From: a virus | IMG/VR virus record: IMGVR_UViG_3300045988_111022 | Direction: 5' to 3' (one strand) | Length of the DNA: 64,000 nt | In this document: positions 4,356 to 62,946 of the stretch, piece after piece | Layout of the letters: every line of letters begins with the position of its first letter | How positions within the stretch are numbered: position 1 is the first letter of the stretch | The notes under the pieces: generated by a model | The model's database searches: none | What the model saw: only the letters and a program-made list of their open reading frames with translations | What the model was told of the DNA's origin: nothing | Translations under genes and position numbers: made by a program

Positions 4356-4408
4356 TCTCACTAAAATGAGATTATCACATTGCTATCTCACAAAAGTGAG
4401 ATTATAAT
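4356..4408 (+). promoter_or_regulatory. Two palindromic operators plus near-consensus rightward promoter
   Basis: O1 TCTCACTAAAATGAGA (4356-4371). O2 TCTCACAAAAGTGAGA (4386-4401), 30 bp centre to centre. TTGCTA (4380-4385)-17 nt-TATAAT (4403-4408), with O2 filling the spacer. Confidence 0.7.
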
Positions 4409-4410
4409 AT

Positions 4411-4441
4411 ATCTAACAAATGATTCAAACACCTGTTAGAT
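4411..4441 (+). promoter_or_regulatory. 31-nt leader palindrome ATCTAACAAATG...ACACCTGTTAGAT
   Basis: Arms ATCTAACA / TGTTAGAT, immediately downstream of the -10 and 16 nt upstream of the ATG at 4457. Related copies at 7299-7329 and 2206-2250. Confidence 0.55.
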
Positions 4442-4456
4442 AGAAAGGACAATACC

Positions 4457-7027: not shown

Positions 7028-7298
7028 GTACAAAACAAATGTCAGATTGAAAGGGTCAGCGCTTTCCATTCAGCGCGTTCCCCGAAGCCCCTCTGCAAAG
7101 GGGCTTCAACGTACCACGCAGTACAAACCATGCAAGTTGATTCCTCCTAATGACAGGCATCGCTGCAAAGCGCAGCGCCGATACTGCAAATCGGCGGTGC
7201 GCAGGTAAAGCGATTACTCCCCAAGAGCTTCTGCTTAACAGCTTAAAGGCGGGGGAACGCGTTGAATGGTGGGTACTGGCCCTTTTAGTCTATCAAAA
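7028..7298 (+). other. Long structured 5' leader or possible ncRNA between the promoter and the Cro-like gene
   Basis: No RBS-preceded +ORF. Hairpins: GAAGCCCCT-CTGCAA-AGGGGCTTC (7085-7108) and GCGCAGCGCCGAT-ACTGCAA-ATCGGCGGTGCGC (7170-7202, 1 mismatch). Confidence 0.4.
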
Positions 7299-7329
7299 AT
7301 CAAACAAGTGTTCAATACATTTGTTAGAT
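7299..7329 (+). promoter_or_regulatory. 31-nt leader palindrome ATCAAACAAGTG...ACATTTGTTAGAT
   Basis: Same length and arm sequence family as 4411-4441. Lies 28 nt upstream of the ATG at 7357. Confidence 0.55.
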
Positions 7330-7356
7330 AAATCTTTGTCTGGAAGGAGAAAAAAC

Positions 7357-35795: not shown

Positions 35796-35871
35796 GCAGT
35801 CATAGCTCAGTTGGTAGAGCGCCTGCCCTCCAAGCAGGATGCCGCGGGTTCGAGCCCCGTTGACTGCTCCA
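35796..35871 (+). tRNA. tRNA, probable Gly (anticodon UCC) with C at position 33
   Basis: Hand-folded cloverleaf: acceptor GCAGTCA/TGACTGC, D arm GCTC-AGTTGGTA-GAGC, anticodon arm CCTGC-CCTCCAA-GCAGG, T arm GCGGG-TTCGAGC-CCCGT. CCA is encoded. Confidence 0.75.
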
Positions 35872-35874
35872 TAT

Positions 35875-35947
35875 CGAGGGTTGGCCAAGTTGGATAAGGC
35901 ATGGGCCTTTGACTCCCAGACCGCCGGTTCGAGTCCGGTACCCTCGA
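35875..35947 (+). tRNA. tRNA-Gln (anticodon UUG)
   Basis: Acceptor CGAGGGT/ACCCTCG, D arm GCC-AAGTTGGATAA-GGC (Gln-like), anticodon loop CTTTGAC, T arm GCCGG-TTCGAGT-CCGGT. No encoded CCA. C31-U39 mismatch. Confidence 0.7.
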
Positions 35948-35952
35948 CTTAT

Positions 35953-36029
35953 GCTGGTGTAGCTCAGTTGGACAGAGCAGTTGATTTGTAATCTTCAGGT
36001 CGTGGGTTCAAATCCCATCCCCAGCTCCA
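35953..36029 (+). tRNA. tRNA-Thr-like (anticodon UGU) with weakened stems
   Basis: Acceptor GCTGGTG/CCCCAGC (one U-C mismatch). Anticodon arm GTTGA-TTTGTAA-TCTTC (two U-U mismatches). T arm GTGGG-TTCAAAT-CCCAT. CCA is encoded. Confidence 0.55.
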
Positions 36030-51570: not shown

Positions 51571-52605
51571 ATGGCGGATGCACGTTCGGGAGCGGAACTG
51601 GCCGACTATTCCAAGGTGGCATTTTCGGTTGGGGGCGTTCGGCAGGAAATTTCGATTGACGATTGGCGAAATGGATGGGCCGCAATCGTTGGCGGCTTGA
51701 ACGGAAAACCGACAAGTCAACAGTTTAACATGGTGTTCTATATTCTGTCTGTGTTGCTAAATCAGAACATTTCGGATGTTTCGGCGGTTAAGAGTACGGC
51801 AAACGCAGCATTGCCGAAAGAAAGCTTTACGGCGGAACAGATTGTGGCGCTGCTTTCTGAGTATGGGCGTATGTCTGGATGCAATGCAGATATGCTGGAC
51901 GGAAAGCACGCGGACGCATTTGCTGCGGATAAGCACAGCCATTCGGCAAGTGACATTACAAGCGGGAATTTGCCGATTGAACGCGGCGGTACTGGCGCTG
52001 GCACCTCTGCTGATGCGTGTCGTGCTCTTGGCGCTATGCGGAACACAGGCGGTACCTTTACGGGAACGGTCTATTTTGCAAATGGCACAGCGCACTACGT
52101 CAGCTCTGCGGGAGATGCGCATTTTAGATCGGTGACTGCGAGCGAGGACATTCATGCAAAACGAGTGTTTGAAGCGGTCTACAACGACTACGCGGAGCTG
52201 ATGCCCCGCGGCGAGGACACCGAACCGGGTGATATTATTGCGCTGGATACTAACAGCCGGCAAGAAAAATATGTCAAAGCAACCAATCTTTCGAGCCGGA
52301 TTGCTGGAATCCATTCGGACGAATACGGAATGCTGATCGGCGGAGAGCGGGTCAATGATGGGGAGGATTTCTTGAAAAAGAATCTTCCCCGTTTTATTCC
52401 TGTTTCGCTTGCCGGACGTGTCCACACAAAGGTCATTGGCCCGGTAAACACGGGAGACTGCATTGTGCTTTCCCATATTCCGGGGGTTGGCCGTGCGGCA
52501 AAACCGTGTGAATATGTTGACCCGTGCAAAGTGGTTGGTTATGCGGTTGAGGGTGACAATTTGACTGAACAGCGTCGGCTTAAAGTCAGAGTGAGAGGTG
52601 CTTAA
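51571..52605 (+). CDS. Tail fibre protein
   Basis: ADMLDGKHADAFAADKHSHSASDITSGNLPIERGGTGAGT is a signature fibre motif. The C-terminal domain has a GD.I pattern. Confidence 0.75.
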   Translation: MADARSGAELADYSKVAFSVGGVRQEISIDDWRNGWAAIVGGLNGKPTSQQFNMVFYILSVLLNQNISDVSAVKSTANAALPKESFTAEQIVALLSEYGRMSGCNADMLDGKHADAFAADKHSHSASDITSGNLPIERGGTGAGTSADACRALGAMRNTGGTFTGTVYFANGTAHYVSSAGDAHFRSVTASEDIHAKRVFEAVYNDYAELMPRGEDTEPGDIIALDTNSRQEKYVKATNLSSRIAGIHSDEYGMLIGGERVNDGEDFLKKNLPRFIPVSLAGRVHTKVIGPVNTGDCIVLSHIPGVGRAAKPCEYVDPCKVVGYAVEGDNLTEQRRLKVRVRGA

Positions 52606-53717
52606 TGGCTAACTGGGGGCAAAAAGTCTATCCCTCGGACTACTCCGAAATCAAAGCCTTGCTCAAGGCTGAGATAGGGAGACGCGGGAAAACGGAGGGA
52701 ACAGCGCGAGGGCAGAGCGTCGGCAGCATGGCGAGCTATAACGACTCTGCATACGACTTCTCGACACAACCGAAAGCAGGCGCGTACATCAAAAACGAGC
52801 ACATCCAAAAAATTACGAAGCCTTTGGATGCAATCAAAGGAACATCGACTACGCCCGGGAATGGGGTGCAAATCACAGCGAGCAGGCTGAGTCAAGCAGC
52901 GGCGGTGTTGAGTGAGCTGAGCGCAATCCCGGAAACCGCTACATCAAGCGGGTGTGCTGGCCGCTGTTCAGGCCTATGTTCTACGGGATGCAATACGGCT
53001 TGCACGAGCTGTACAGGCTCCTGTACTGGGAGCTGCACAGGGTCTTGCGTGGCATCGTGCGCCAATGATTGCGCTGGCGGATGCAAGGGAAGCTGCCAGG
53101 GAACGTGCATGGGGTCCTGCACGGGAACCTGCACTAGAGCGTGTGCAAATAACTGCTCCAGCACTTGCACGGGGTCCTGTACGGGGTCCTGCACGGGTTC
53201 GTGTACGGGAACGTGCACAAAGGCGTGTGCGAATGATTGTGCCGGCACTTGCGCGGGGTCCTGTACGGGAAGCTGTACGGGAAGCTGCACTGGAAGTTGC
53301 ATCGGAGGCTGTAACACAACTTGCACGAAGAATTGCGCAAATAACTGTTCTGGTTCCTGCTCCGGCGGATGTTCGGGCGGCTGCTATGGTTCGTGTGATG
53401 GGTGCTCTTCGACTTGTGAGGGCGGCTGTGGAAGCAGCTGTTCTGATAATTGCTCAAGTAAATGTATCCAGCAATGCAGTTCGACGTGTGCGAATGACTG
53501 CTCCGGCAGCTGTGTGAACCTTGGTTGTGCATTCAACTGCGGAAGTGACTGCTCTAACCATTGCTCCGGCGGCTGTTCTGGAGGCTGTGGTTCTCAATGC
53601 AGAAGCGGCTGTGACGTCTTTTGCACGGGGTGCAGTTCAACGTGCGCAGATGACTGCTCCGGATCCTGCAGCGGTGGTTGTAGTGGCTGCTCTGGCTTCC
53701 TGTGGAGCAAATCGTGA
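52605..53717 (+). CDS. CXXX-repeat cysteine-ladder protein (putative rSAM substrate; fibre-module protein)
   Basis: 370 aa. After ~110 N-terminal residues there are 63 Cys, and 57 of the 62 Cys-Cys intervals are exactly 4 residues (CTGS, CSGG, CAND...). TAATG overlap with the fibre gene. Confidence 0.85.
   Translation: MANWGQKVYPSDYSEIKALLKAEIGRRGKTEGTARGQSVGSMASYNDSAYDFSTQPKAGAYIKNEHIQKITKPLDAIKGTSTTPGNGVQITASRLSQAAAVLSELSAIPETATSSGCAGRCSGLCSTGCNTACTSCTGSCTGSCTGSCVASCANDCAGGCKGSCQGTCMGSCTGTCTRACANNCSSTCTGSCTGSCTGSCTGTCTKACANDCAGTCAGSCTGSCTGSCTGSCIGGCNTTCTKNCANNCSGSCSGGCSGGCYGSCDGCSSTCEGGCGSSCSDNCSSKCIQQCSSTCANDCSGSCVNLGCAFNCGSDCSNHCSGGCSGGCGSQCRSGCDVFCTGCSSTCADDCSGSCSGGCSGCSGFLWSKS
52940..53700 (+). 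repeat. Degenerate 12-nt-period tandem repeat (coding, TGC-NNN-NNN-NNN)
   Basis: For example tgcacggggtcctgtacggggtcctgcacgggttcgtgtacgggaacgtgcac. Encodes the CXXX ladder. Confidence 0.85.
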
Positions 53718-53734
53718 TGAAAGGAGAAATCCAA

Positions 53735-54316
53735 ATGGAGACAACGCTTCATTTTGCACAGAATGCAGATGCAGGAACGGAAGAATCCTATCTCAGGAAT
53801 CTTCCGCTTCTGAAGCTGCTTGCAAAAGAGAACATTGAAGCAGACGATTGGAGCGTCCTGCTTGCGGCAACGCCGAATAATGAGGACAAGTTGTTGTGGT
53901 GTCTTGGTTACACGGGTACCCTCTGTGCGCTGGACGCAACGGACTTTGATGATTGGGTGGTTTACTGCTCTACGGTGGTTCTGTCTGCGCTGGAGGCGTG
54001 CGGGGTTGAAGCGCCCGATGAACGGAAGAATCTTCTGTCCATCGGGCTGGCGGCGCGCACATTCAATTTTTCTGGCAACCCGGTGACAAAAAATCTGAAA
54101 TGTGCAGAAACGATTCAAGGCGCGGCAAGCTATAACTGCACTGAGGATGCCGACATTTTTTCGATGTGGTATCTTTTGCAGGTGCTTACTGAGTATCTGC
54201 GGCTGGACTTCAACGGCAATCTCCGGGAACTGATTGACGCCATGAAAACCATGAACAAGATTCGTGACCGTTACCGTCAGATCGCAGACCGCCTCCCGAA
54301 GATGGATGCCTGCTAA
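53735..54316 (+). CDS. Hypothetical protein of the CXXX cassette (193 aa)
   Basis: ATG at 53735, 7 nt after AAAGGAG. No motif recognised. Confidence 0.65.
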   Translation: METTLHFAQNADAGTEESYLRNLPLLKLLAKENIEADDWSVLLAATPNNEDKLLWCLGYTGTLCALDATDFDDWVVYCSTVVLSALEACGVEAPDERKNLLSIGLAARTFNFSGNPVTKNLKCAETIQGAASYNCTEDADIFSMWYLLQVLTEYLRLDFNGNLRELIDAMKTMNKIRDRYRQIADRLPKMDAC

Positions 54317-54326
54317 GGAGAAGAAT

Positions 54327-54629
54327 ATGAAAGCCATTAAATTGACCACGGCGGAAAGCGAAGCGGTGGAGCGAGCTTACTATGAAGCAAGCTCTTTTGA
54401 AGCGCTGATGGCGGTTCTGTGCCGCCAGCTTAACGCGGATGCAAATCCGGAAACCGCAAAGGTGATCCGCCATTATGCAGAACTGTGCCGTGCGGCTCAA
54501 ATGAAGCTGAAGATGGTACAGGAAATGGTGATCTCCCGGTATCTTGACCATCAGACGTCGGCGGGTGTGCAGTACAGGTTTGATTTTGTTCGAGAGGAGG
54601 TCGTTCTCCTTGAAGCAACGGCGAATTGA
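54327..54629 (+). CDS. Small helical protein of the CXXX cassette (100 aa; possible modification-system partner)
   Basis: ATG at 54327, 6 nt after AAGGAG. Immediately upstream of the rSAM gene. Confidence 0.65.
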   Translation: MKAIKLTTAESEAVERAYYEASSFEALMAVLCRQLNADANPETAKVIRHYAELCRAAQMKLKMVQEMVISRYLDHQTSAGVQYRFDFVREEVVLLEATAN

Positions 54630-54642
54630 GGATTATGGAAAC

Positions 54643-55953
54643 ATGGTCCAAAGGCTGTATGCGCGCGATACTGCGGCTGAGAACCGCGTCTGTTGCCGGA
54701 ACATTACGTTCCAAGTGACAAGCGGGTGCAATCTCAGGTGCTCATACTGCTATGAGCACCACAAGAGCGTTGAGCGAATGAGCATCGAGACCGGGCGAAA
54801 GGTCGTAGATTACATCCTTGACCTGTACGAGAAAAATGAGTCCGATTTCGTAAATCAGAATACGCGGGCAGTTGTGCTGGATTTTATTGGCGGAGAGCCA
54901 TTGCTTGAAGCCGAACTGATTGAGCACATCTGCGACTACTGGTTCTCAGAGTGCTACCGCCGAGAGATTCCGCTTGCGCCGTTCACGAGGATCAGCTTTG
55001 CGACGAATGGCAAGTTGTGGTTTTCTTCGGCGGCGCAGCACCTGTTCGCAAAATACCATGAGATGATGTCTGTGACTGTCAGCATTGACGGCGTTCAAGA
55101 GTTGCATGACAAGTACAGAGTGGATGAGCATGGGATTGGCAGCTTTTCGCTGGCATGGAAGGCATTTCAGGCAGGAAAAAAGGATTTTGGGTGGCTTACG
55201 TCCAAGATGACCTTTGTTCCGGGATCTTTTCAGTACATTGCCGACAGCATCAAAATGATGCTGGATGAGGGATGCGTGGAAATCGCTTGCAACTACGCTT
55301 ACGAACCTGTCTACACTCCCGAAGATGGCCGTACACTGTATGAACAGATGCAGATGGTCTCTGACTACATTATTTCCCGACGAATGGATGTCACGATTAC
55401 GATGCTGGACGACCTTTTGGGCGGACAGGCTAAGGATGACAATAATTTCTGCGGCGGTACGGGAGCGATGCTGTCGTTTGCACCGGATGGGAGTGCCTAT
55501 CCCTGCATTCGGTACGCTCCGATTTCCATTGGCGAGGAAAAATCGCAGAAAGTCCGTTTCGGCAGCATCTATGATGGACTGTATGCCACGGATGCCCAGC
55601 GTCAGGCAAAAGCGGAATTGGATGCCATCACCCGTACATCTCAATCTCCGCAGGAGTGCTTAGAGTGCCCTGTATCAGCTGGCTGTGGCTGGTGTAGCGG
55701 CCTTAACTATGAATTATTCGGTACGGCCAATAAACGCTCCACAGCCATTTGTTGGGCGCACAAAGCGCGTGTTCTGGCAAGCTGTTACTATCACAATCGC
55801 CGTTATCTGGAAATCGGAGACCGTCTCCCAATCGAGGTGAGGCTTCCGGCCGAAGATGGGCTGAAGATTCTGCCCGCCGAGAAATGGGCGGAGCTGATGC
55901 ACATTGAGACAGCGGCGCTCATGAAGTTTGCTGATGAAGTCGGGATTAGTTGA
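54643..55953 (+). CDS. Radical SAM / SPASM-domain maturase (anSME-like architecture)
   Basis: TSGCNLRCSYCYEHH (CX3CX2C). C-terminal Cys clusters CGGTGAMLSFAPDGSAYPC and CLECPVSAGCGWCSG. Confidence 0.85.
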   Translation: MVQRLYARDTAAENRVCCRNITFQVTSGCNLRCSYCYEHHKSVERMSIETGRKVVDYILDLYEKNESDFVNQNTRAVVLDFIGGEPLLEAELIEHICDYWFSECYRREIPLAPFTRISFATNGKLWFSSAAQHLFAKYHEMMSVTVSIDGVQELHDKYRVDEHGIGSFSLAWKAFQAGKKDFGWLTSKMTFVPGSFQYIADSIKMMLDEGCVEIACNYAYEPVYTPEDGRTLYEQMQMVSDYIISRRMDVTITMLDDLLGGQAKDDNNFCGGTGAMLSFAPDGSAYPCIRYAPISIGEEKSQKVRFGSIYDGLYATDAQRQAKAELDAITRTSQSPQECLECPVSAGCGWCSGLNYELFGTANKRSTAICWAHKARVLASCYYHNRRYLEIGDRLPIEVRLPAEDGLKILPAEKWAELMHIETAALMKFADEVGIS

Positions 55954-55967
55954 AAGGAGGGAGCGCA

Positions 55968-56873
55968 ATGGCAATCCTCATTGCCGATACCAAGTTGGAG
56001 ACCGAAACCGATGCTTGGTATATGTTCTATGCTGACACAAAGGAAGACATACAAACATTGCCGACGAGTACATCTACAGGATCTTCTTATCGGGTAAGAA
56101 AGTATGCTCGACCGACGAGCGTTGCATACTGCATAGAAGAAGCAAGGCAGTATATGCTGGATAGCAAAGATCGGTGGCGCGCAATGTGCGGTCTTTCTGA
56201 TAGCGTTTTGGATGCCTTGAGTAAAAGTGCTGCAGAACTTTTGGCTATATGCAAGGACACGGAGAACTTTCGGGATGAAGCGGTGAAAAGTGCTGAAAAG
56301 GCAGAGAAAGATAAAGAAGCATCTGCTGCCAATGCTCTCGCTGCAGATAGAAGCGCGAAAAAAGCCAGTGAGAGCGAGGGCGTTGCTTCTCAAAAAGCAG
56401 AAAATGCGAAAGAAGCAGCAGAAGCTTCAAACAAATCCGCTGAAGAAGCATCGAAAAGTGCGGCAGGTGCACTTGCAAGTGAGCAGGCTGCGTCTGAGAG
56501 CGCACGACTTTCCTCTATTAGCGAAGCCGCTTCAAAAGATGCAATGAATGAGGCTAAAGATTTTTCAAATTCAGCGTCGAAATCTGCTAGAGAGGCTCTT
56601 GAATCAAAACGTGCTGCAGAAGACGCTGCCAATAGTGCCTCCGAATCCAGCCTTGCCGCCGCAAGTTCGGAGAGAGCGGCAACAGAAAAAGCGGCAGAAT
56701 CATCTGAACTGGCAATAAGGACCGAAAAAAATGCAGAGTTATCAAAAGAAAGCAGTGAAACGGCTATTAAAGCAGCTGCAGAAGCAAAGAAAGCTCTGTC
56801 AATGCTGTCATTCGCTTTTGGAATCGATGATGAGGGCCGTTTTTCGCTGTTTGCGAAAAAATCTATAACATAA
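55968..56873 (+). CDS. Ala/Ser/Glu-rich coiled-coil fibre-like protein
   Basis: GAAAGGAGGGAG RBS. Long SAxxA/KxAxEAxxS heptad-like low-complexity region. The N-terminal motif is shared with 50740-50985. Confidence 0.65.
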   Translation: MAILIADTKLETETDAWYMFYADTKEDIQTLPTSTSTGSSYRVRKYARPTSVAYCIEEARQYMLDSKDRWRAMCGLSDSVLDALSKSAAELLAICKDTENFRDEAVKSAEKAEKDKEASAANALAADRSAKKASESEGVASQKAENAKEAAEASNKSAEEASKSAAGALASEQAASESARLSSISEAASKDAMNEAKDFSNSASKSAREALESKRAAEDAANSASESSLAAASSERAATEKAAESSELAIRTEKNAELSKESSETAIKAAAEAKKALSMLSFAFGIDDEGRFSLFAKKSIT

Positions 56874-56888
56874 ATGGTTATAATCTAA

Positions 56889-56908
56889 CAAAAATGATAC
56901 GAACAGAT
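56889..56908 (+). promoter_or_regulatory. TATAAT followed by the ATCTAACAA half-site (internal promoter candidate)
   Basis: TATAAT at 56889-56894. ATCTAACAAAAATGAT at 56893-56908. Same -10/CTAACA juxtaposition as at 4403-4420 and 62399-62411. Confidence 0.35.
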
Positions 56909-56948: not shown

Positions 56949-58679
56949 ATGGACGGTTGGGATTTTGTTGGTCATCCGGTGACGGATGAATCGGCAAAGG
57001 AAGCAATCGAGCAATTAAAAAGGCAAAACGACATTCTGACTGGCATAGCTGCCGGTAATGCTGGTGCTGAGTTCGTTGACGCAATCTTCGATGGCCTGTT
57101 GGATGGTCAGAACACGAGTGAGGTGTTCTGGAATTGGTGGCCACTGTCTACCGGAAACGGCGCGACAAAATACCAGCGCTTGGAGCGTTTCGCCAAGATG
57201 CTGGCCAAGTATACAAAAGGCAAAACCTACACCGTGCGCTTTTACGGCGATGATGTGAGTAGCGACTATACAGGCACTCCGCTGGATGACTTGGCGGACG
57301 GCCGTGAAGCTGCGCCGCTCCTGACGGATACAAGCCCTGAGACAGCGGATTGGTCTGAGGAAGACCCGTTTACATGGTATATCCGTGCGAATGCGCTTTC
57401 TCTGGAAGATGGCACCATGAATGTGCTGGCGCTGGAGGGCGAAGCAGAGTTTGACCTTTCGGGCGAGACGGCTCCCGTCTACTGCTTTGCGCTGGCGTTG
57501 ACCATGAAAGAATGGGAGGACGGCACCTATATCTATAACAGTTGGCGTACCTTCTCCGGCGGTGGCTATGAACCTATGGCTGGTGATGTAGCCCCGGACA
57601 AGAGCCGCCGCTGGCTGACATGGCACCCTGCGTTCCATGGCGGTAAAAATTCCAAGGGCGGCATGACCAGCGGTGCCGGACTGCCCCCGATGCCGTGGAC
57701 AAGCGCCAACGATGCCATCACTCTGGCTCGTAAAATCACGGCTTATGATGCCTTGTGGACTGACTGCGACCAGCAGTATGTTTTGGCTCAGTGGCGGCTG
57801 CGCCATTGGACGCTGAGCAACAGCGGCAAGCTGGAGGGCTGCACGTCCTACAATTACCAGTATACCCCGGCGGTGGCCGAGACCGGAGTAAAGCGTGTGC
57901 TTGCGACGAAAGCGCAGGGCGCAAACTTCCTCGTGGGTTCTGCGGTATGTATGGGCGAGCGCGGCGAAAATACCAGCACAGACCGCAATTTGTCCTATAA
58001 CCATGACATTTTCAACTGGGCCAAGATTTCCAGCATTACCAATGTGACCGTGAACGATACGGAGTATGTGGCTCTGAACCTTGAGCTGGATGCTCCCATT
58101 GACACCACAACCACAATGCTGGTCTCTACTATGCCGTGGGAGTCCGGCACGACTGAGGTGGTTCCGGGTCACAGCGATGGATGCCGTGGTAATCTGACGA
58201 ATGGCAAATATCCGTACCGCGTGGCGGGCATCGAGATGCAGATTGGCGCATACGTCGAGCAGCTGGACCCTCTGTGGAAAGCAAGCCTCGTCGATGATGA
58301 CCATTGGCATTACGATGTGTTCTCCTGCAAGAGCGGTGAGAAGCAGGTCGGTTCTATTTCTTCGGACTATGCCCAGACCGGCTCCTTCGACCTGAACGAC
58401 AAGGCAACTTGGTCGTGGCATTATATCCGCAAGCTGGGCAAGCTTGGCGCGGAAGCCATGATGTATGAAAAGTTCAATGGCAGTGGCTCCACCTATGTAC
58501 GGGCTGCGTTCATTTCGCCCGGTTCGGCGGGCGTGTACGCCCCTTGGCGCGGTGGCAACCTGGATGACGGTGCTAACTGCGGCCTGCCTTGTGCGAATGG
58601 CAACAATGGCCCCGGCACGGCGAACTGGAACGGTGTGCCTCGGCATGCTGATGATAAAATAGCCCTCAAAAGGGCATAA
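56949..58679 (+). CDS. Large distal fibre / receptor-binding-like protein (576 aa)
   Basis: Position in the module. C-terminus PWRGGNLDDGANCGLPCANGNNGPGTANWNGVPR resembles the Gly/Asn-rich lectin-like tips of phage fibres. Confidence 0.55.
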   Translation: MDGWDFVGHPVTDESAKEAIEQLKRQNDILTGIAAGNAGAEFVDAIFDGLLDGQNTSEVFWNWWPLSTGNGATKYQRLERFAKMLAKYTKGKTYTVRFYGDDVSSDYTGTPLDDLADGREAAPLLTDTSPETADWSEEDPFTWYIRANALSLEDGTMNVLALEGEAEFDLSGETAPVYCFALALTMKEWEDGTYIYNSWRTFSGGGYEPMAGDVAPDKSRRWLTWHPAFHGGKNSKGGMTSGAGLPPMPWTSANDAITLARKITAYDALWTDCDQQYVLAQWRLRHWTLSNSGKLEGCTSYNYQYTPAVAETGVKRVLATKAQGANFLVGSAVCMGERGENTSTDRNLSYNHDIFNWAKISSITNVTVNDTEYVALNLELDAPIDTTTTMLVSTMPWESGTTEVVPGHSDGCRGNLTNGKYPYRVAGIEMQIGAYVEQLDPLWKASLVDDDHWHYDVFSCKSGEKQVGSISSDYAQTGSFDLNDKATWSWHYIRKLGKLGAEAMMYEKFNGSGSTYVRAAFISPGSAGVYAPWRGGNLDDGANCGLPCANGNNGPGTANWNGVPRHADDKIALKRA

Positions 58680-58895
58680 GCGTTTCATTGCGCCTGTGGC
58701 TTGACCACTAAGATCATGTTATACCGACACCATGCAGCTGAGCGTTTCGAGAGATACGGACGCATTGGTGAGAGCGTGGCCGCAGTTTTTGGGACTGCGT
58801 GGCGGCGAGTAGTAGAAATCCGTTCTGCCTGATTTAAGGCCGGGGACGGCAACCGAAAGTCGTTGAACATCAGCAAGTTTGGAGGCTTTAAGGAT
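58680..58895 (+). other. Structured non-coding leader upstream of the RT (candidate ncRNA)
   Basis: 216 nt without a credible ORF. Imperfect hairpins: ACACCATGC...GCATTGGTG (about 58726-58772), GGCCGCAG-TTTTTGGGA-CTGCGTGGC, CCGTTCTGCC...GGCCGGGGACGG. Confidence 0.35.
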
Positions 58896-60140
58896 ATGAA
58901 AACAAAGAGGTTCTTACAGCTCACGCACGCAATGTGTGAGCAGGCTGTCCTTGAAGCGTTTGATAAAAAATGGTTCCGCCGGGATTACCTCGCCACGGTG
59001 GAGAAATATGGAGGTGTGAGCCGTGCAGAATTATCGCGCGCCGCCCGGTTAAACGACTGGAATCTGCGTTTGGAAGTAGTGAACAGCATTGCTCTCGAAA
59101 TGGAACAACGCGTGGAAGACCTTGTGGAAGGCGAGACGGACGACCTCGACCTTGAACCTGTGAGCGTATTTTATCGAATTGATGGGATCAGCATGAAACG
59201 GCGTGAGCTGTCCAACTGCTGCCCGATGCACCAAGCCTTTGGACATTTGGCGGTGATTGGACTGCGGCCGCTGCTTCGCGCAAAATTGCTTCCGTATCAA
59301 TTCGCCAGCATCCCCGGAAAGGGGCAGATTGCTCTAAAACGTCAGGTTGAGCGTTGGCTTCGCAGGAAAAGCCTTGGAATTCAACACGCAGTCAAGCTGG
59401 ATGTGCAGGGAGCGTATGCCCATACGAAACAGGCTGTCGTGATGGATATTCTGCGGCGTGAGATTCCGGGTGCGACATGGTTGCTGGCGGTCATCAAATG
59501 CTTGCTAGCGATGGCACCGGGCGAGGGACTGCTCATTGGCGGATACCTCGAAGCGTGGCTTTTCAACCTTGTTGCCAGCTATATGCTGGTAAAGGTGTTG
59601 AGCTATGCAAAGACTCGCCGAGGAGCGTCTACGCCGTTTGTGACCCGCAGCGGCAGCTATATGGACGACCTTGTTCTACTTGGGCGACGATGGGCCGATA
59701 TACAAAGTGCGGCCCGGAAATTGACTAAGTGGGCGCTGGCTGAATTTGGGCTGACCATAAAAACCGAGTGGGTTCGGGTGGATTTTCTAAGCGCGGCTGA
59801 AGAACATCAGCGCCGACACATGACTGGAGCGGCGAAAGGGTGTCCGGGCTTGGATATGGCTGGCTATGTGATGCACCGTACCTACACCACGATACGCCCC
59901 AGAATTTTTCTGAGGGCTCGGCGGCAGTACATTCGAGCCAAGGCTGATGTTTCACGAAATGGATATGTGCCGGTCTGGCGGTCATACAAGCTGGTCAGCT
60001 ATAACGGCTATTTTGACTGGACAAAATCTCGTGCAATCAGCGAAGCCCTAAAACAGAAAAAGCTGTTCACGGCCGCAAAAGTAGCAATCCGCGTAACGGC
60101 ACAAAGAAATGCAATGAAGAAAGTGAGGATAGCAGCATGA
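58896..60140 (+). CDS. Reverse transcriptase (unclassified; non-canonical motif 4)
   Basis: RT motifs: SIPGKGQIALKR (1/2), KLDVQGAYAH (A/3), GLLIGGYLEAWLFNL (B/4; no SQ), SYMDDLVLLG (C/5, YxDD), GLTIKTEW (D/6). GGAGG RBS. ATGA overlap with the next gene. Confidence 0.8.
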   Translation: MKTKRFLQLTHAMCEQAVLEAFDKKWFRRDYLATVEKYGGVSRAELSRAARLNDWNLRLEVVNSIALEMEQRVEDLVEGETDDLDLEPVSVFYRIDGISMKRRELSNCCPMHQAFGHLAVIGLRPLLRAKLLPYQFASIPGKGQIALKRQVERWLRRKSLGIQHAVKLDVQGAYAHTKQAVVMDILRREIPGATWLLAVIKCLLAMAPGEGLLIGGYLEAWLFNLVASYMLVKVLSYAKTRRGASTPFVTRSGSYMDDLVLLGRRWADIQSAARKLTKWALAEFGLTIKTEWVRVDFLSAAEEHQRRHMTGAAKGCPGLDMAGYVMHRTYTTIRPRIFLRARRQYIRAKADVSRNGYVPVWRSYKLVSYNGYFDWTKSRAISEALKQKKLFTAAKVAIRVTAQRNAMKKVRIAA

Positions 60141-60469
60141 TTTTTATCGAGAACCTTGACCATAATCCGCAGGCAGTAACGCTGGAAAAACTGCCGGATG
60201 GTACGGCTTGGCTGTACCTGCGTAAGGACGCTCATGAGGTGCGAACCGAGGCTCCCGAAGGAGAGCAGGGCGGTACTTCGTGGGAATGCACCACGGCGCT
60301 TTGTAAGTTGGGCGCTGATTATACGGAGGAGACCGAAGAGAGCATCACGGCTGCAGCTGATGATTGGTGGGTCTATGCAGAAGCGTGGACGACTGCCGAT
60401 GACGCTGCGCCCTCTCTGGAAGAGCGAGTGAGCGTGCTGGAAACCATGTTCATGGGAGGTGAGCTGTAA
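60137..60469 (+). CDS. Hypothetical protein (XkdW-position)
   Basis: 110 aa. Translationally coupled to the RT and to the XkdX-like ORF. Confidence 0.55.
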   Translation: MIFIENLDHNPQAVTLEKLPDGTAWLYLRKDAHEVRTEAPEGEQGGTSWECTTALCKLGADYTEETEESITAAADDWWVYAEAWTTADDAAPSLEERVSVLETMFMGGEL

Positions 60470-60609
60470 TGGGCAAGGAGCAATTTTATCGCACCATGTA
60501 TCGCATGAAGAAAATCACCGCCGTTGGCGTATGGGAAAAAGTGGATGAGGGCGAACTGACGAAAGCTCAGGCACTCCGCATCTGCGGCCCGCGTCCGAAA
60601 GAGTCCTGA
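60469..60609 (+). CDS. XkdX-like small protein (46 aa, not in track)
   Basis: TAATG overlap. MGKEQFYRTMYRMKKITAVGVWEKVDEGELTKAQALRICG fits the XkdX pattern. Confidence 0.55.
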   Translation: MGKEQFYRTMYRMKKITAVGVWEKVDEGELTKAQALRICGPRPKES

Positions 60610-62310: not shown

Positions 62311-62366
62311 ACACCCCCGTCACCTGTCAGATGAAAAGTCGAAACAGGTGACGGGGGTGTTTTTTG
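62311..62366 (+). terminator. Very strong rho-independent terminator (provisional right end of the phage late region)
   Basis: ACACCCCCGTCACCTGT (62311-62327) / ACAGGTGACGGGGGTGT (62344-62360), followed by TTTTTT. Confidence 0.9.
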
Positions 62367-62385
62367 CTTTTTATGCAATAAAGAA

Positions 62386-62411
62386 TCACAAAATTCGTGA
62401 TAATCTAACAA
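62386..62411 (+). promoter_or_regulatory. Palindrome TCAC-N7-GTGA overlapping GATAAT and an ATCTAACAA half-site
   Basis: TCACAAAATTCGTGA at 62386-62400. GATAAT at 62399-62404. ATCTAACAA at 62403-62411. Upstream of the XRE gene. Confidence 0.35.
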
Positions 62412-62468: not shown

Positions 62469-62738
62469 ATGATTAGAATTTTACTGTCCAAGAAGCTAGG
62501 CGAGCTGAAATGGACGCAAGCAGATCTGGCACGCGCTACAGGCATTCGGCCGACTACAATCAGTGATTACTACAACGAAATTGCAGAGAGAATGAATCTG
62601 AATCATTTGGACCTCATCTGCGAAGCGCTGGATTGCGAACCGGACGAAATACTTGTACGTGTTCCAAATCCTGAACCAAGGGTAAGGAATCGTACTGGCT
62701 TTGAGAAACCCGCGACGGAATCAAAAGTCGGTATATAA
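62469..62738 (+). CDS. XRE-family HTH regulator
   Basis: LGELKWTQADLARATGIRPTTISDYYNEIAERMNLNHLDLICEALDCEPDEIL. Confidence 0.8.
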   Translation: MIRILLSKKLGELKWTQADLARATGIRPTTISDYYNEIAERMNLNHLDLICEALDCEPDEILVRVPNPEPRVRNRTGFEKPATESKVGI

Positions 62739-62946
62739 GGGAAAGGGCGGCTTTCGGGTCGTCCTTTTTCTGTTGCGTGACATTTGTATGAAACAAATGT
62801 ATTATAATAATGTATATGGCAGTTGAATGGAGCATTTGATGGTCCGCCGGGGTGAATTTTGTGCCACCTTGAAAAAAGTGCGGTTTTGTGGTATTCTTTA
62901 TGTGACAAATGATTCATTCAAGTGTTATATAAAAGTAGGTGAGCCG

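Follow-up and report, generated by a model that had tools for sequence, protein, structure and literature searches.

The window analyzed here is a 64,000-nucleotide (nt) stretch of viral DNA (IMG/VR record IMGVR_UViG_3300045988_111022) in which a 414-amino-acid (aa) reverse transcriptase (RT), preceded by a noncoding leader, is located directly downstream of a tail-fiber-like gene. We conclude, with a probability of about 95%, that this RT and its leader are one half of a diversity-generating retroelement (DGR), namely, its RT and template RNA, in a Faecalibacterium prausnitzii prophage and that the variable repeat (VR) and the template repeat (TR) of the element are fused in the window. The element type itself is known, a phage DGR that diversifies a tail fiber; here it is represented by a very common and previously unlabelled RT clade, with TR and VR merged in this copy. 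A first-pass annotation, made from the sequence alone, had described an orphan RT with a structured leader and had offered two explanations for it, either a degenerate DGR derivative aimed at the adjacent fiber tip or an RT-plus-noncoding-RNA module for superinfection exclusion. The former was borne out, as orthologues carry a VR at the fiber 3' end together with a TR, and the window copy has a hybrid of the two. The features on which the argument depends are as follows.

56949..58679, plus strand: tail-fiber-like DGR target gene, 576 aa; matches phrog_17147 (1e-212) and phrog_5302 "tail protein"; homologues carry a VR in 82 loci
58502..58650, plus strand: single 149-nt repeat, a VR/TR hybrid, aligned with the VR and TR of loci L001, L025, L030, and L048 and with the TR of identical-RT loci
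58651..58895, plus strand: DGR spacer (Sp-like) RNA, located between TR and RT and including the leader; delimited by a 25-locus alignment, RNAalifold, and pair counts
58896..60140, plus strand: RT, 414 aa (ATG form), with motif A KLDVQGAY, motif 4 LIGGYLEAW (without SQ), and motif C YMDD

DGR signature in related loci

The evidence that carries this conclusion comes from the flanks of 102 related RT loci, which served as the comparison set. At most of these loci the fiber protein matches twice, once as the full gene and once as a copy of its C terminus of ~80 codons lying between the fiber gene and the RT gene. In the intact layout, a VR of ~149 nt lies near the 3' end of the fiber gene, where it forms the last ~60 codons of the fiber homologue; the TR follows ~150 nt downstream of the VR end and is itself followed by a spacer of ~245 nt and then by the RT gene. 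Intact relatives also have a GC-rich, IMH-like VR end and, ~25 nt downstream, a 7-bp hairpin (ATGTGCC-GTA-GGCACAT), both of which may be VR-side homing signals. A VR-TR pair with adenine (A)-biased mismatches is located directly upstream of the RT gene in 82 of the 102 loci, and in total 1239 mismatches fall at TR adenines versus 36 elsewhere. The family therefore sits in a canonical DGR [fiber gene (VR)-TR-spacer-RT] at these 82 loci, and the description of the RT as an orphan does not hold.

The same signal is found at finer scales. In L001, a complete isolate chromosome, 14 of 14 VR/TR mismatches are at TR adenines. The closest subfamily comprises 17 loci with 17 distinct VRs, and substitutions number 244 at 22 TR-A sites versus 21 elsewhere. 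Among contigs with an RT identical to that of the window, the 10 longest contexts are all intact, each with a different VR. TR adenines occur mostly in AAC/AAT codons, the TR reading in frame as ...AAT...AAC...AAC...AAT GGC AAC AAT...AAC TGG AAC. From these mismatch patterns, the RT lineage would appear to be an active DGR lineage aimed at the tail-fiber tip.

The rest of the comparison set is composed of 12 contigs that are too short upstream to tell, one locus (L017) with too little upstream sequence to judge, five loci that are collapsed like the window (L026, L039, L068, L083, and L096), with distant subfamilies included among them, and two IMG/VR loci (L065 and L066) in which a pair is present at the usual place without a clear A bias (6 of 10 mismatches at TR adenines). 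The latter two may represent decaying or inactive DGRs. Five IMG/VR contigs (L023, L024, L035, L041, and L043) begin only 400 to 530 nt upstream of the RT gene, in the repeat region or shortly before it, as might be the case if assemblies broke off where the VR is hypervariable within a sample.

Affiliation of the reverse transcriptase

All five RT motifs originally quoted for the 414-aa open reading frame (ORF) are present in its translation. The ORF may start at 58863 (TTG) or at 58896 (ATG), with GGAGG ~10 nt before the ATG, and its stop codon overlaps the ATG of the next gene as ATGA at 60137-60140, confirming the coupling that had been noted. Against Pfam RVT_1 the protein scores 16.8 bits, below the 29.6-bit cutoff, and it matches PHROG 1423 "reverse transcriptase" at 3.6e-62. 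Its family, ~410 aa long and well conserved, has 155 matches in a large protein database and a confirmed relative on 222 IMG/VR viral contigs. It is hugely prevalent in human-gut data: the index of an assembly collection lists a protein identical to the window RT in 2689 blocks. Hosts of the family in GTDB genomes are Faecalibacterium, Subdoligranulum, Oscillospiraceae, Lachnospiraceae, and other Clostridia. At the RT, the window shares 99% identity with an F. prausnitzii chromosome, and a megablast search with 14 kb of the window phage against 50,697 phage records gave zero matches.

When the RT family profile was searched against the whole PDB, one protein was matched, the Bordetella phage DGR RT known as bRT (8ub7; E = 5.6e-8). 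The AlphaFold2 (AF2) model of the window RT, with a predicted local distance difference test (pLDDT) score of 90.7, had the same structure as its best Foldseek match (E = 4e-14; template modeling [TM] score of 0.79, normalized to the target), and lower-ranked fold matches were to G2L4, DRT9, group II, retron, DRT2, and Abi-P2 RTs. Two residues, R103 and I214, are invariant across the family and correspond to R74 and I181 of bRT, which promote adenine mutagenesis (PMC7826257). The nearest outgroup RTs, those of Butyrivibrio phage Arawn and of two gut phage scaffolds (25 to 30% identity), are in loci with a VR-TR-RT layout and A-specific mismatches, and the canonical SQ dipeptide of motif 4 is present in the sister RTs of Arawn and of L147, one of the two scaffolds. 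On the basis of sequence and model comparisons, the window RT was assigned to the DGR RT clade.

Two other RT classes have to be weighed against this placement. If the RT were of a defense type (DRT/UG/Abi) and worked with an upstream noncoding RNA as a prophage moron, its PADLOC matches (generic RT at 2.3e-6 and RT_UG4 at 2e-4, both marginal and covering the palm region only), the conserved structured RNA upstream of the RT gene, and the presence of DRT9 and DRT2 among the lower-ranked fold matches would be accounted for. However, PADLOC gave no significant match of the window RT to a class-specific defense-RT model (DRT/UG, AbiA/K/P2); the orthologues have A-biased TR/VR pairs (82 of 102 loci); the conserved RNA is directly 3' of the TR, the place of a DGR spacer RNA; the sole sequence-level PDB match was to bRT, even though the PDB also contains DRT2, DRT9, AbiK-like, retron, and group II RTs; and the gene is within a same-strand tail-fiber/lysis run in which its stop overlaps the next start codon. 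We therefore consider a defense function highly improbable, and the superinfection-exclusion module, given the marginal PADLOC matches and the position of its supposed noncoding RNA immediately after a TR, was not upheld. The group II intron or retron reading is effectively refuted: the match to TIGR04416 (group II RT/maturase) that might suggest it amounts to 20 bits, far under the 300-bit cutoff, and although some public records of RT relatives are labelled "retron-type," retron RTs were unmatched by sequence, and both group II and retron RTs were weaker fold matches than bRT. Further, no maturase or endonuclease domain is present in the window RT, and Rfam detected only three tRNAs in the window, with neither a group II intron nor a retron nor any other RNA family near the RT gene, in agreement with the earlier statement that no features of either element could be found.

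In public databases that name it at all, the DGR RT family is listed as "hypothetical protein" in JGI/IMG and just "FL=1" in MGnify, and most of its clusters have no precomputed Pfam domain. BFVD entry A0A8S5L8F2, a 1061-aa "tail collar fiber protein" of an uncultured siphovirus, includes the RT fold (TM score of 0.69), and in the phrog_1423 profile the RT occupies positions 107-452 of 1040; these may reflect either a true RT-fiber fusion or gene-calling read-through. A 467-aa in-frame fusion in L114 to L117 (protein P0052 and ~15 near-identical clusters) joins a tyrosine-integrase N terminus to an RT C terminus just past motif A. Its loci are cryptic prophage remnants in host chromosomes, with the order guaA-repressor-int'::'RT-lysis genes-host genes and the phage interior wholly deleted. 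By this layout they are ordinary cryptic-prophage remnants, and we rejected the fusion as an RT-linked rearrangement. In-frame fusions of the RT C terminus to ParB, HTH (helix-turn-helix)/TerS-like, Dit-like, and radical S-adenosylmethionine (SAM) sequences (P0022, P0056, P0063, and P0120) were also observed.

Spacer RNA between the repeat and the RT gene

The leader extends from the fiber stop codon at 58679 to the RT ATG, a noncoding gap whose length of 216 nt was confirmed; its short ORFs (43 aa and, on the minus strand, 79 aa) are unconserved. Within the region between TR and RT, the 25-locus alignment gave the following conserved blocks and predicted helices.

58708-58727, plus strand: conserved block CTAAGATCATGTTATACCGA, contains invariant positions
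58782-58788/58792-58798, plus strand: helix H1, RNAalifold hairpin
58802-58806/58859-58863, plus strand: helix H2, RNAalifold, enclosing long-range helix
58808-58816, plus strand: conserved block AGTAGTAGA, contains invariant positions
58827-58830/58837-58840, plus strand: helix H3, RNAalifold, inner hairpin
58850-58858, plus strand: conserved block CAACCGAAA, contains invariant positions

The invariant blocks persist across loci whose RTs are only 33 to 100% identical, and the leader can be aligned even where RT identity is no more than 33 to 40%. At the 16 helix pairs, 90.2% of the alignment cells can pair, compared with 70.0 ± 1.5% in shuffles (0 of 500 reach the observed value) and 31 to 53% when the partners are slid, and changes on both sides of a pair were counted in 80 cells versus 27 expected. 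Folding of the leader as a single sequence was not significant (minimum free energy z = −0.88). Thus, the "several imperfect hairpins" initially ascribed to the leader find no support in thermodynamics alone, whereas covariation over 25 diverged loci does support structure there. With its conservation and its position after the TR, the leader corresponds to the spacer (Sp) part of the DGR RNA. Further hairpins just 3' of the TR were seen by eye, with their shape apparently kept but not their sequence, and MAFFT left them unaligned.

The merged repeat: assembly collapse or deletion

The single repeat of the window changes character along its length. Its 5' part is of the VR type, with the 5' flank of the fiber gene and two A-to-N changes (T at 58513 and G at 58521). 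From ~58557 on, it is identical to the TR, every TR adenine being kept, including the TR-specific A at 58645, and the sequence that flanks it on the 3' side (CGGCATGCTGATGATAAAATAGCC...) is that of the TR. The crossover falls in the A-poor interval 58522-58556, the 35-nt stretch that is perfectly shared by TR and VR. Compared with intact loci, ~298 nt are missing, namely, the VR 3' part, the fiber stop codon, the downstream hairpin, and the TR 5' part; the hairpin downstream of the VR (with ATGTGCCGTAGGCACAT as VR 3' flank or hairpin) is accordingly absent from the window. The last ~59 codons of the window fiber derive from the hybrid repeat plus the TR 3' flank, and the protein ends in ...GVPRHADDKIALKRA (TR encoded, ...NGNNGPGTANWNGVPRHADDKIALKRA). 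As assembled, the window locus would have kept the template and the enzyme and lost the acceptor VR, which would leave the fiber tip frozen in a TR-encoded, Asn-rich state.

Assembly collapse and genuine deletion were rated as roughly equally likely origins of this structure. In the case of collapse, to which we give even odds, the true genome would have a separate VR and TR, and the assembler would have left out the 298-nt loop, which is flanked by 149-nt direct repeats with the perfect 35-nt core in common. Such an artifact is consistent with the results of a degenerate junction pattern scan, by which 8 of 19 metagenome contigs were found to be collapsed, each with its own VR-type 5' part and crossover, and with the finding that six of these eight are low-coverage SPAdes contigs (coverage of 0.9 to 4.1). 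It is likewise consistent with the intact state of all 10 long identical-RT contigs and of the complete isolate chromosome L001, with an IMG/VR ratio of 1 collapsed to 7 intact, and with the five contigs (L023, L024, L035, L041, and L043) that start within or just before the repeat region, as would be expected from assembly trouble there. On the other hand, a second contig, L103 (Logan, SRR22135731), encodes the identical collapsed fiber protein, with 16 differences from the window over 5825 positions. Logan assembly uses k = 31, at which a shared 35-nt core would be expected to interrupt a contig and not to be spanned. The length of the window contig (at least 64 kb) also speaks against an artifact.

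A genuine deletion by homologous recombination or replication slippage between VR and TR, after which the DGR would be unable to diversify and the fiber would be fixed in its TR-encoded form, is in our estimate just short of an even bet. Repeats of 149 nt in direct orientation, ~90% identical and spaced by 298 nt, are natural substrates for deletion, and the crossover is within the longest identical stretch. Moreover, the allele is common to two slightly diverged sequences (the window and L103), and collapsed alleles are also found in distant subfamilies (L026, L039, L068, L083, and L096). Nevertheless, collapsed alleles are overrepresented among metagenome contigs of low coverage, and the best assemblies contain none. 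In addition, the conserved C-terminal tail of the fiber (...PRLAGSGKKRG) is swapped for ...PRHADDKIALKRA; this replacement may be deleterious, and a natural frequency of 42% therefore seems implausible.

Departures from the canonical DGR and comparison with known systems

Several observations weigh against the DGR assignment. No TR/VR-like pair was found in the 64 kb of the window by any of three independent searches (a generic repeat search, an adenine-tolerant scan of both strands, and self-BLAST), as the first-pass annotation had reported, and DGR function therefore cannot be shown for the window copy; the clear pair that would mark an ordinary DGR is present in the orthologues instead. Profile searches of the fiber C terminus against PDB and Pfam gave no match and hence no link to the C-type-lectin (or Ig) fold expected of a DGR target, and its AF2 model (pLDDT of 47, and ~25 over the VR) is too poor for a fold search. 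The mechanism proposed below, with its cDNA, priming, and homing steps, is transferred by analogy from the Bordetella phage BPP-1. Further, the RT departs from the motif 4 signature (I/V/L)GxxxSQ, and an accessory Avd gene appears to be missing, both of which had been recognized from the sequence and were confirmed here.

Motif 4 reads I214-G215-G-Y-L-E219-A220-W in the window RT and I-G-(G/S)-Y-(L/M)-(E/D/S/K)-(A/S/G)-W in the family, compared with (I/L)GxYxSQ(W/Y) in the sister RTs; the I and the G are invariant in the family, and the SQ dipeptide is lost. Variants at SQ occur in ~10% of working DGRs, although the variants listed include none in which both residues are lost (PMC3521204). The missing SQ is therefore atypical but does not exclude membership among DGRs. 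As for Avd (PF05635), a Pfam search of 66 plus-strand ORFs of 85 to 190 aa found none, and the VR-TR gap (~150 nt) and the TR-RT gap (~245 nt) are too short for a gene. DGRs without Avd are on record in Faecalibacterium phages, of which only Mushu and Lagaffe were found to have Avd homologues (PMC5883640, PMC11792537).

The DGR of BPP-1 (mtd-avd-TR-brt; bRT-Avd-RNA entries 8ub7 to 8ubf) provides the best sequence and fold match for the window RT. The two are alike in having the VR at the 3' end of a tail-fiber/receptor-binding gene, a TR before the RT that is followed by a structured spacer, and variation at TR adenines in AAY codons, as well as in the equivalence of R103/I214 to R74/I181 of bRT. 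They differ in that BPP-1 has Avd, whereas none was found here; in motif 4, which is IGSLTSQ-L in bRT and IGGYLEA-W in the window; in RT length (328 aa for bRT versus 414 aa); in the spacer, which has its own conserved blocks in the window; and in the merging of VR and TR in the window. The nearest cultured-phage relatives of the RT are those of Butyrivibrio phage Arawn and Lactobacillus phage LBR48 ("putative reverse transcriptase"), with 21 to 24% identity in the alignment and 25% by tblastn. In both, the RT gene is just upstream of lysis genes, as in the window, but the canonical (I/L)GxxxSQ is kept. Arawn shares the target(VR)-TR-RT layout, and all nine of its mismatches lie at A. In the examined stretch of LBR48, in which the record starts only ~820 nt from the RT gene, no TR/VR repeat was found.

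Tail-fiber-targeting DGRs are the founding example of the DGR class. They have also been well documented in Faecalibacterium phages (PMC5883640, PMC11792537), and the view that an RT at this genome position would be poorly described was not supported. DGRs are reported to be unusually common in F. prausnitzii prophages, and a number of their target proteins lack an assigned function (Cornuault et al. 2018, PMC5883640; PMC11792537). The host genus of these phages is the same as that of the window phage. However, RTs were marked there by the RVT_1 profile (PMC11792537), under whose cutoff the window RT falls (16.8 versus 29.6 bits).

Proposed mechanism and implications

By analogy with the BPP-1 paradigm, we hypothesize that in intact members of this lineage the RT would bind the TR-spacer RNA, that cDNA synthesis would be primed from the spacer, and that the TR would be copied with random misincorporation opposite its adenines. 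The resulting cDNA would then replace the VR, and the receptor-binding tip of the fiber would thereby be recoded. More speculatively, this abundant gut-phage RT clade might achieve efficient adenine-specific mutagenesis with both SQ residues replaced (E/D-A), without Avd, and with its conserved spacer RNA as the only aid, in which case it would be a minimal, Avd-independent DGR, and recombination between TR and VR might be a real and recurrent self-switch-off; we regard this combined proposal as possible, if rather doubtful.

Our results show that an apparent orphan RT beside a tail-fiber gene can belong to a normal DGR with merged repeats, whether merged by biology or by assembly, and that a single genome may mislead in this respect. 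DGR finders based on RVT_1 or on the SQ signature may miss this abundant clade. The natural loss of SQ, with adenine mutagenesis evidently retained, is of use to the study of DGR RT enzymology, and the spacer alignment provides a structural model for an Avd-less DGR RNA that is open to test.

Other genes and repeats in the window

Other features of the window lie outside the DGR and are listed below.

60137..60609, plus strand: downstream 110-aa and 46-aa phage genes, called XkdW/XkdX-like in the first-pass annotation; context only, outside the DGR cassette; no Pfam XkdW match
52605-55953: pair resembling a ribosomally synthesized and posttranslationally modified peptide (RiPP) system, in the tail-fiber module (TIGR04114/TIGR04117 and phrog_6085; TIGR04115)
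35796-36026: three tandem tRNA genes, within the plus-strand gene run of the apparent prophage
56834-56891 and 62354-62411: dispersed direct repeats, a family pair (43 to 58 nt, intergenic)
4403-4445, 7291-7333, and 62892-62934: dispersed direct repeats, second family (43 to 58 nt, intergenic)

The XkdW/XkdX-like genes were placed outside the DGR cassette because they are located between the fiber gene and the TR in L016 and L020. The RiPP-like pair includes a 370-aa protein whose C-terminal ~240 aa consist of CxxxCxxx repeats (CTGSCTGS...), followed by two small ORFs and then by a CXXX-repeat-target radical SAM/SPASM peptide maturase, which scores 308 bits against TIGR04115 (cutoff, 350 bits). 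The pair is conserved in close relatives, and a phage tail with a structural protein crosslinked by a radical SAM enzyme would be unusual. One of the two families of dispersed repeats ends in ...ATAATCTAACAA and is found just upstream of the fiber gene and of an HTH gene at 62469; the dispersed repeats may be shared promoter or operator elements.

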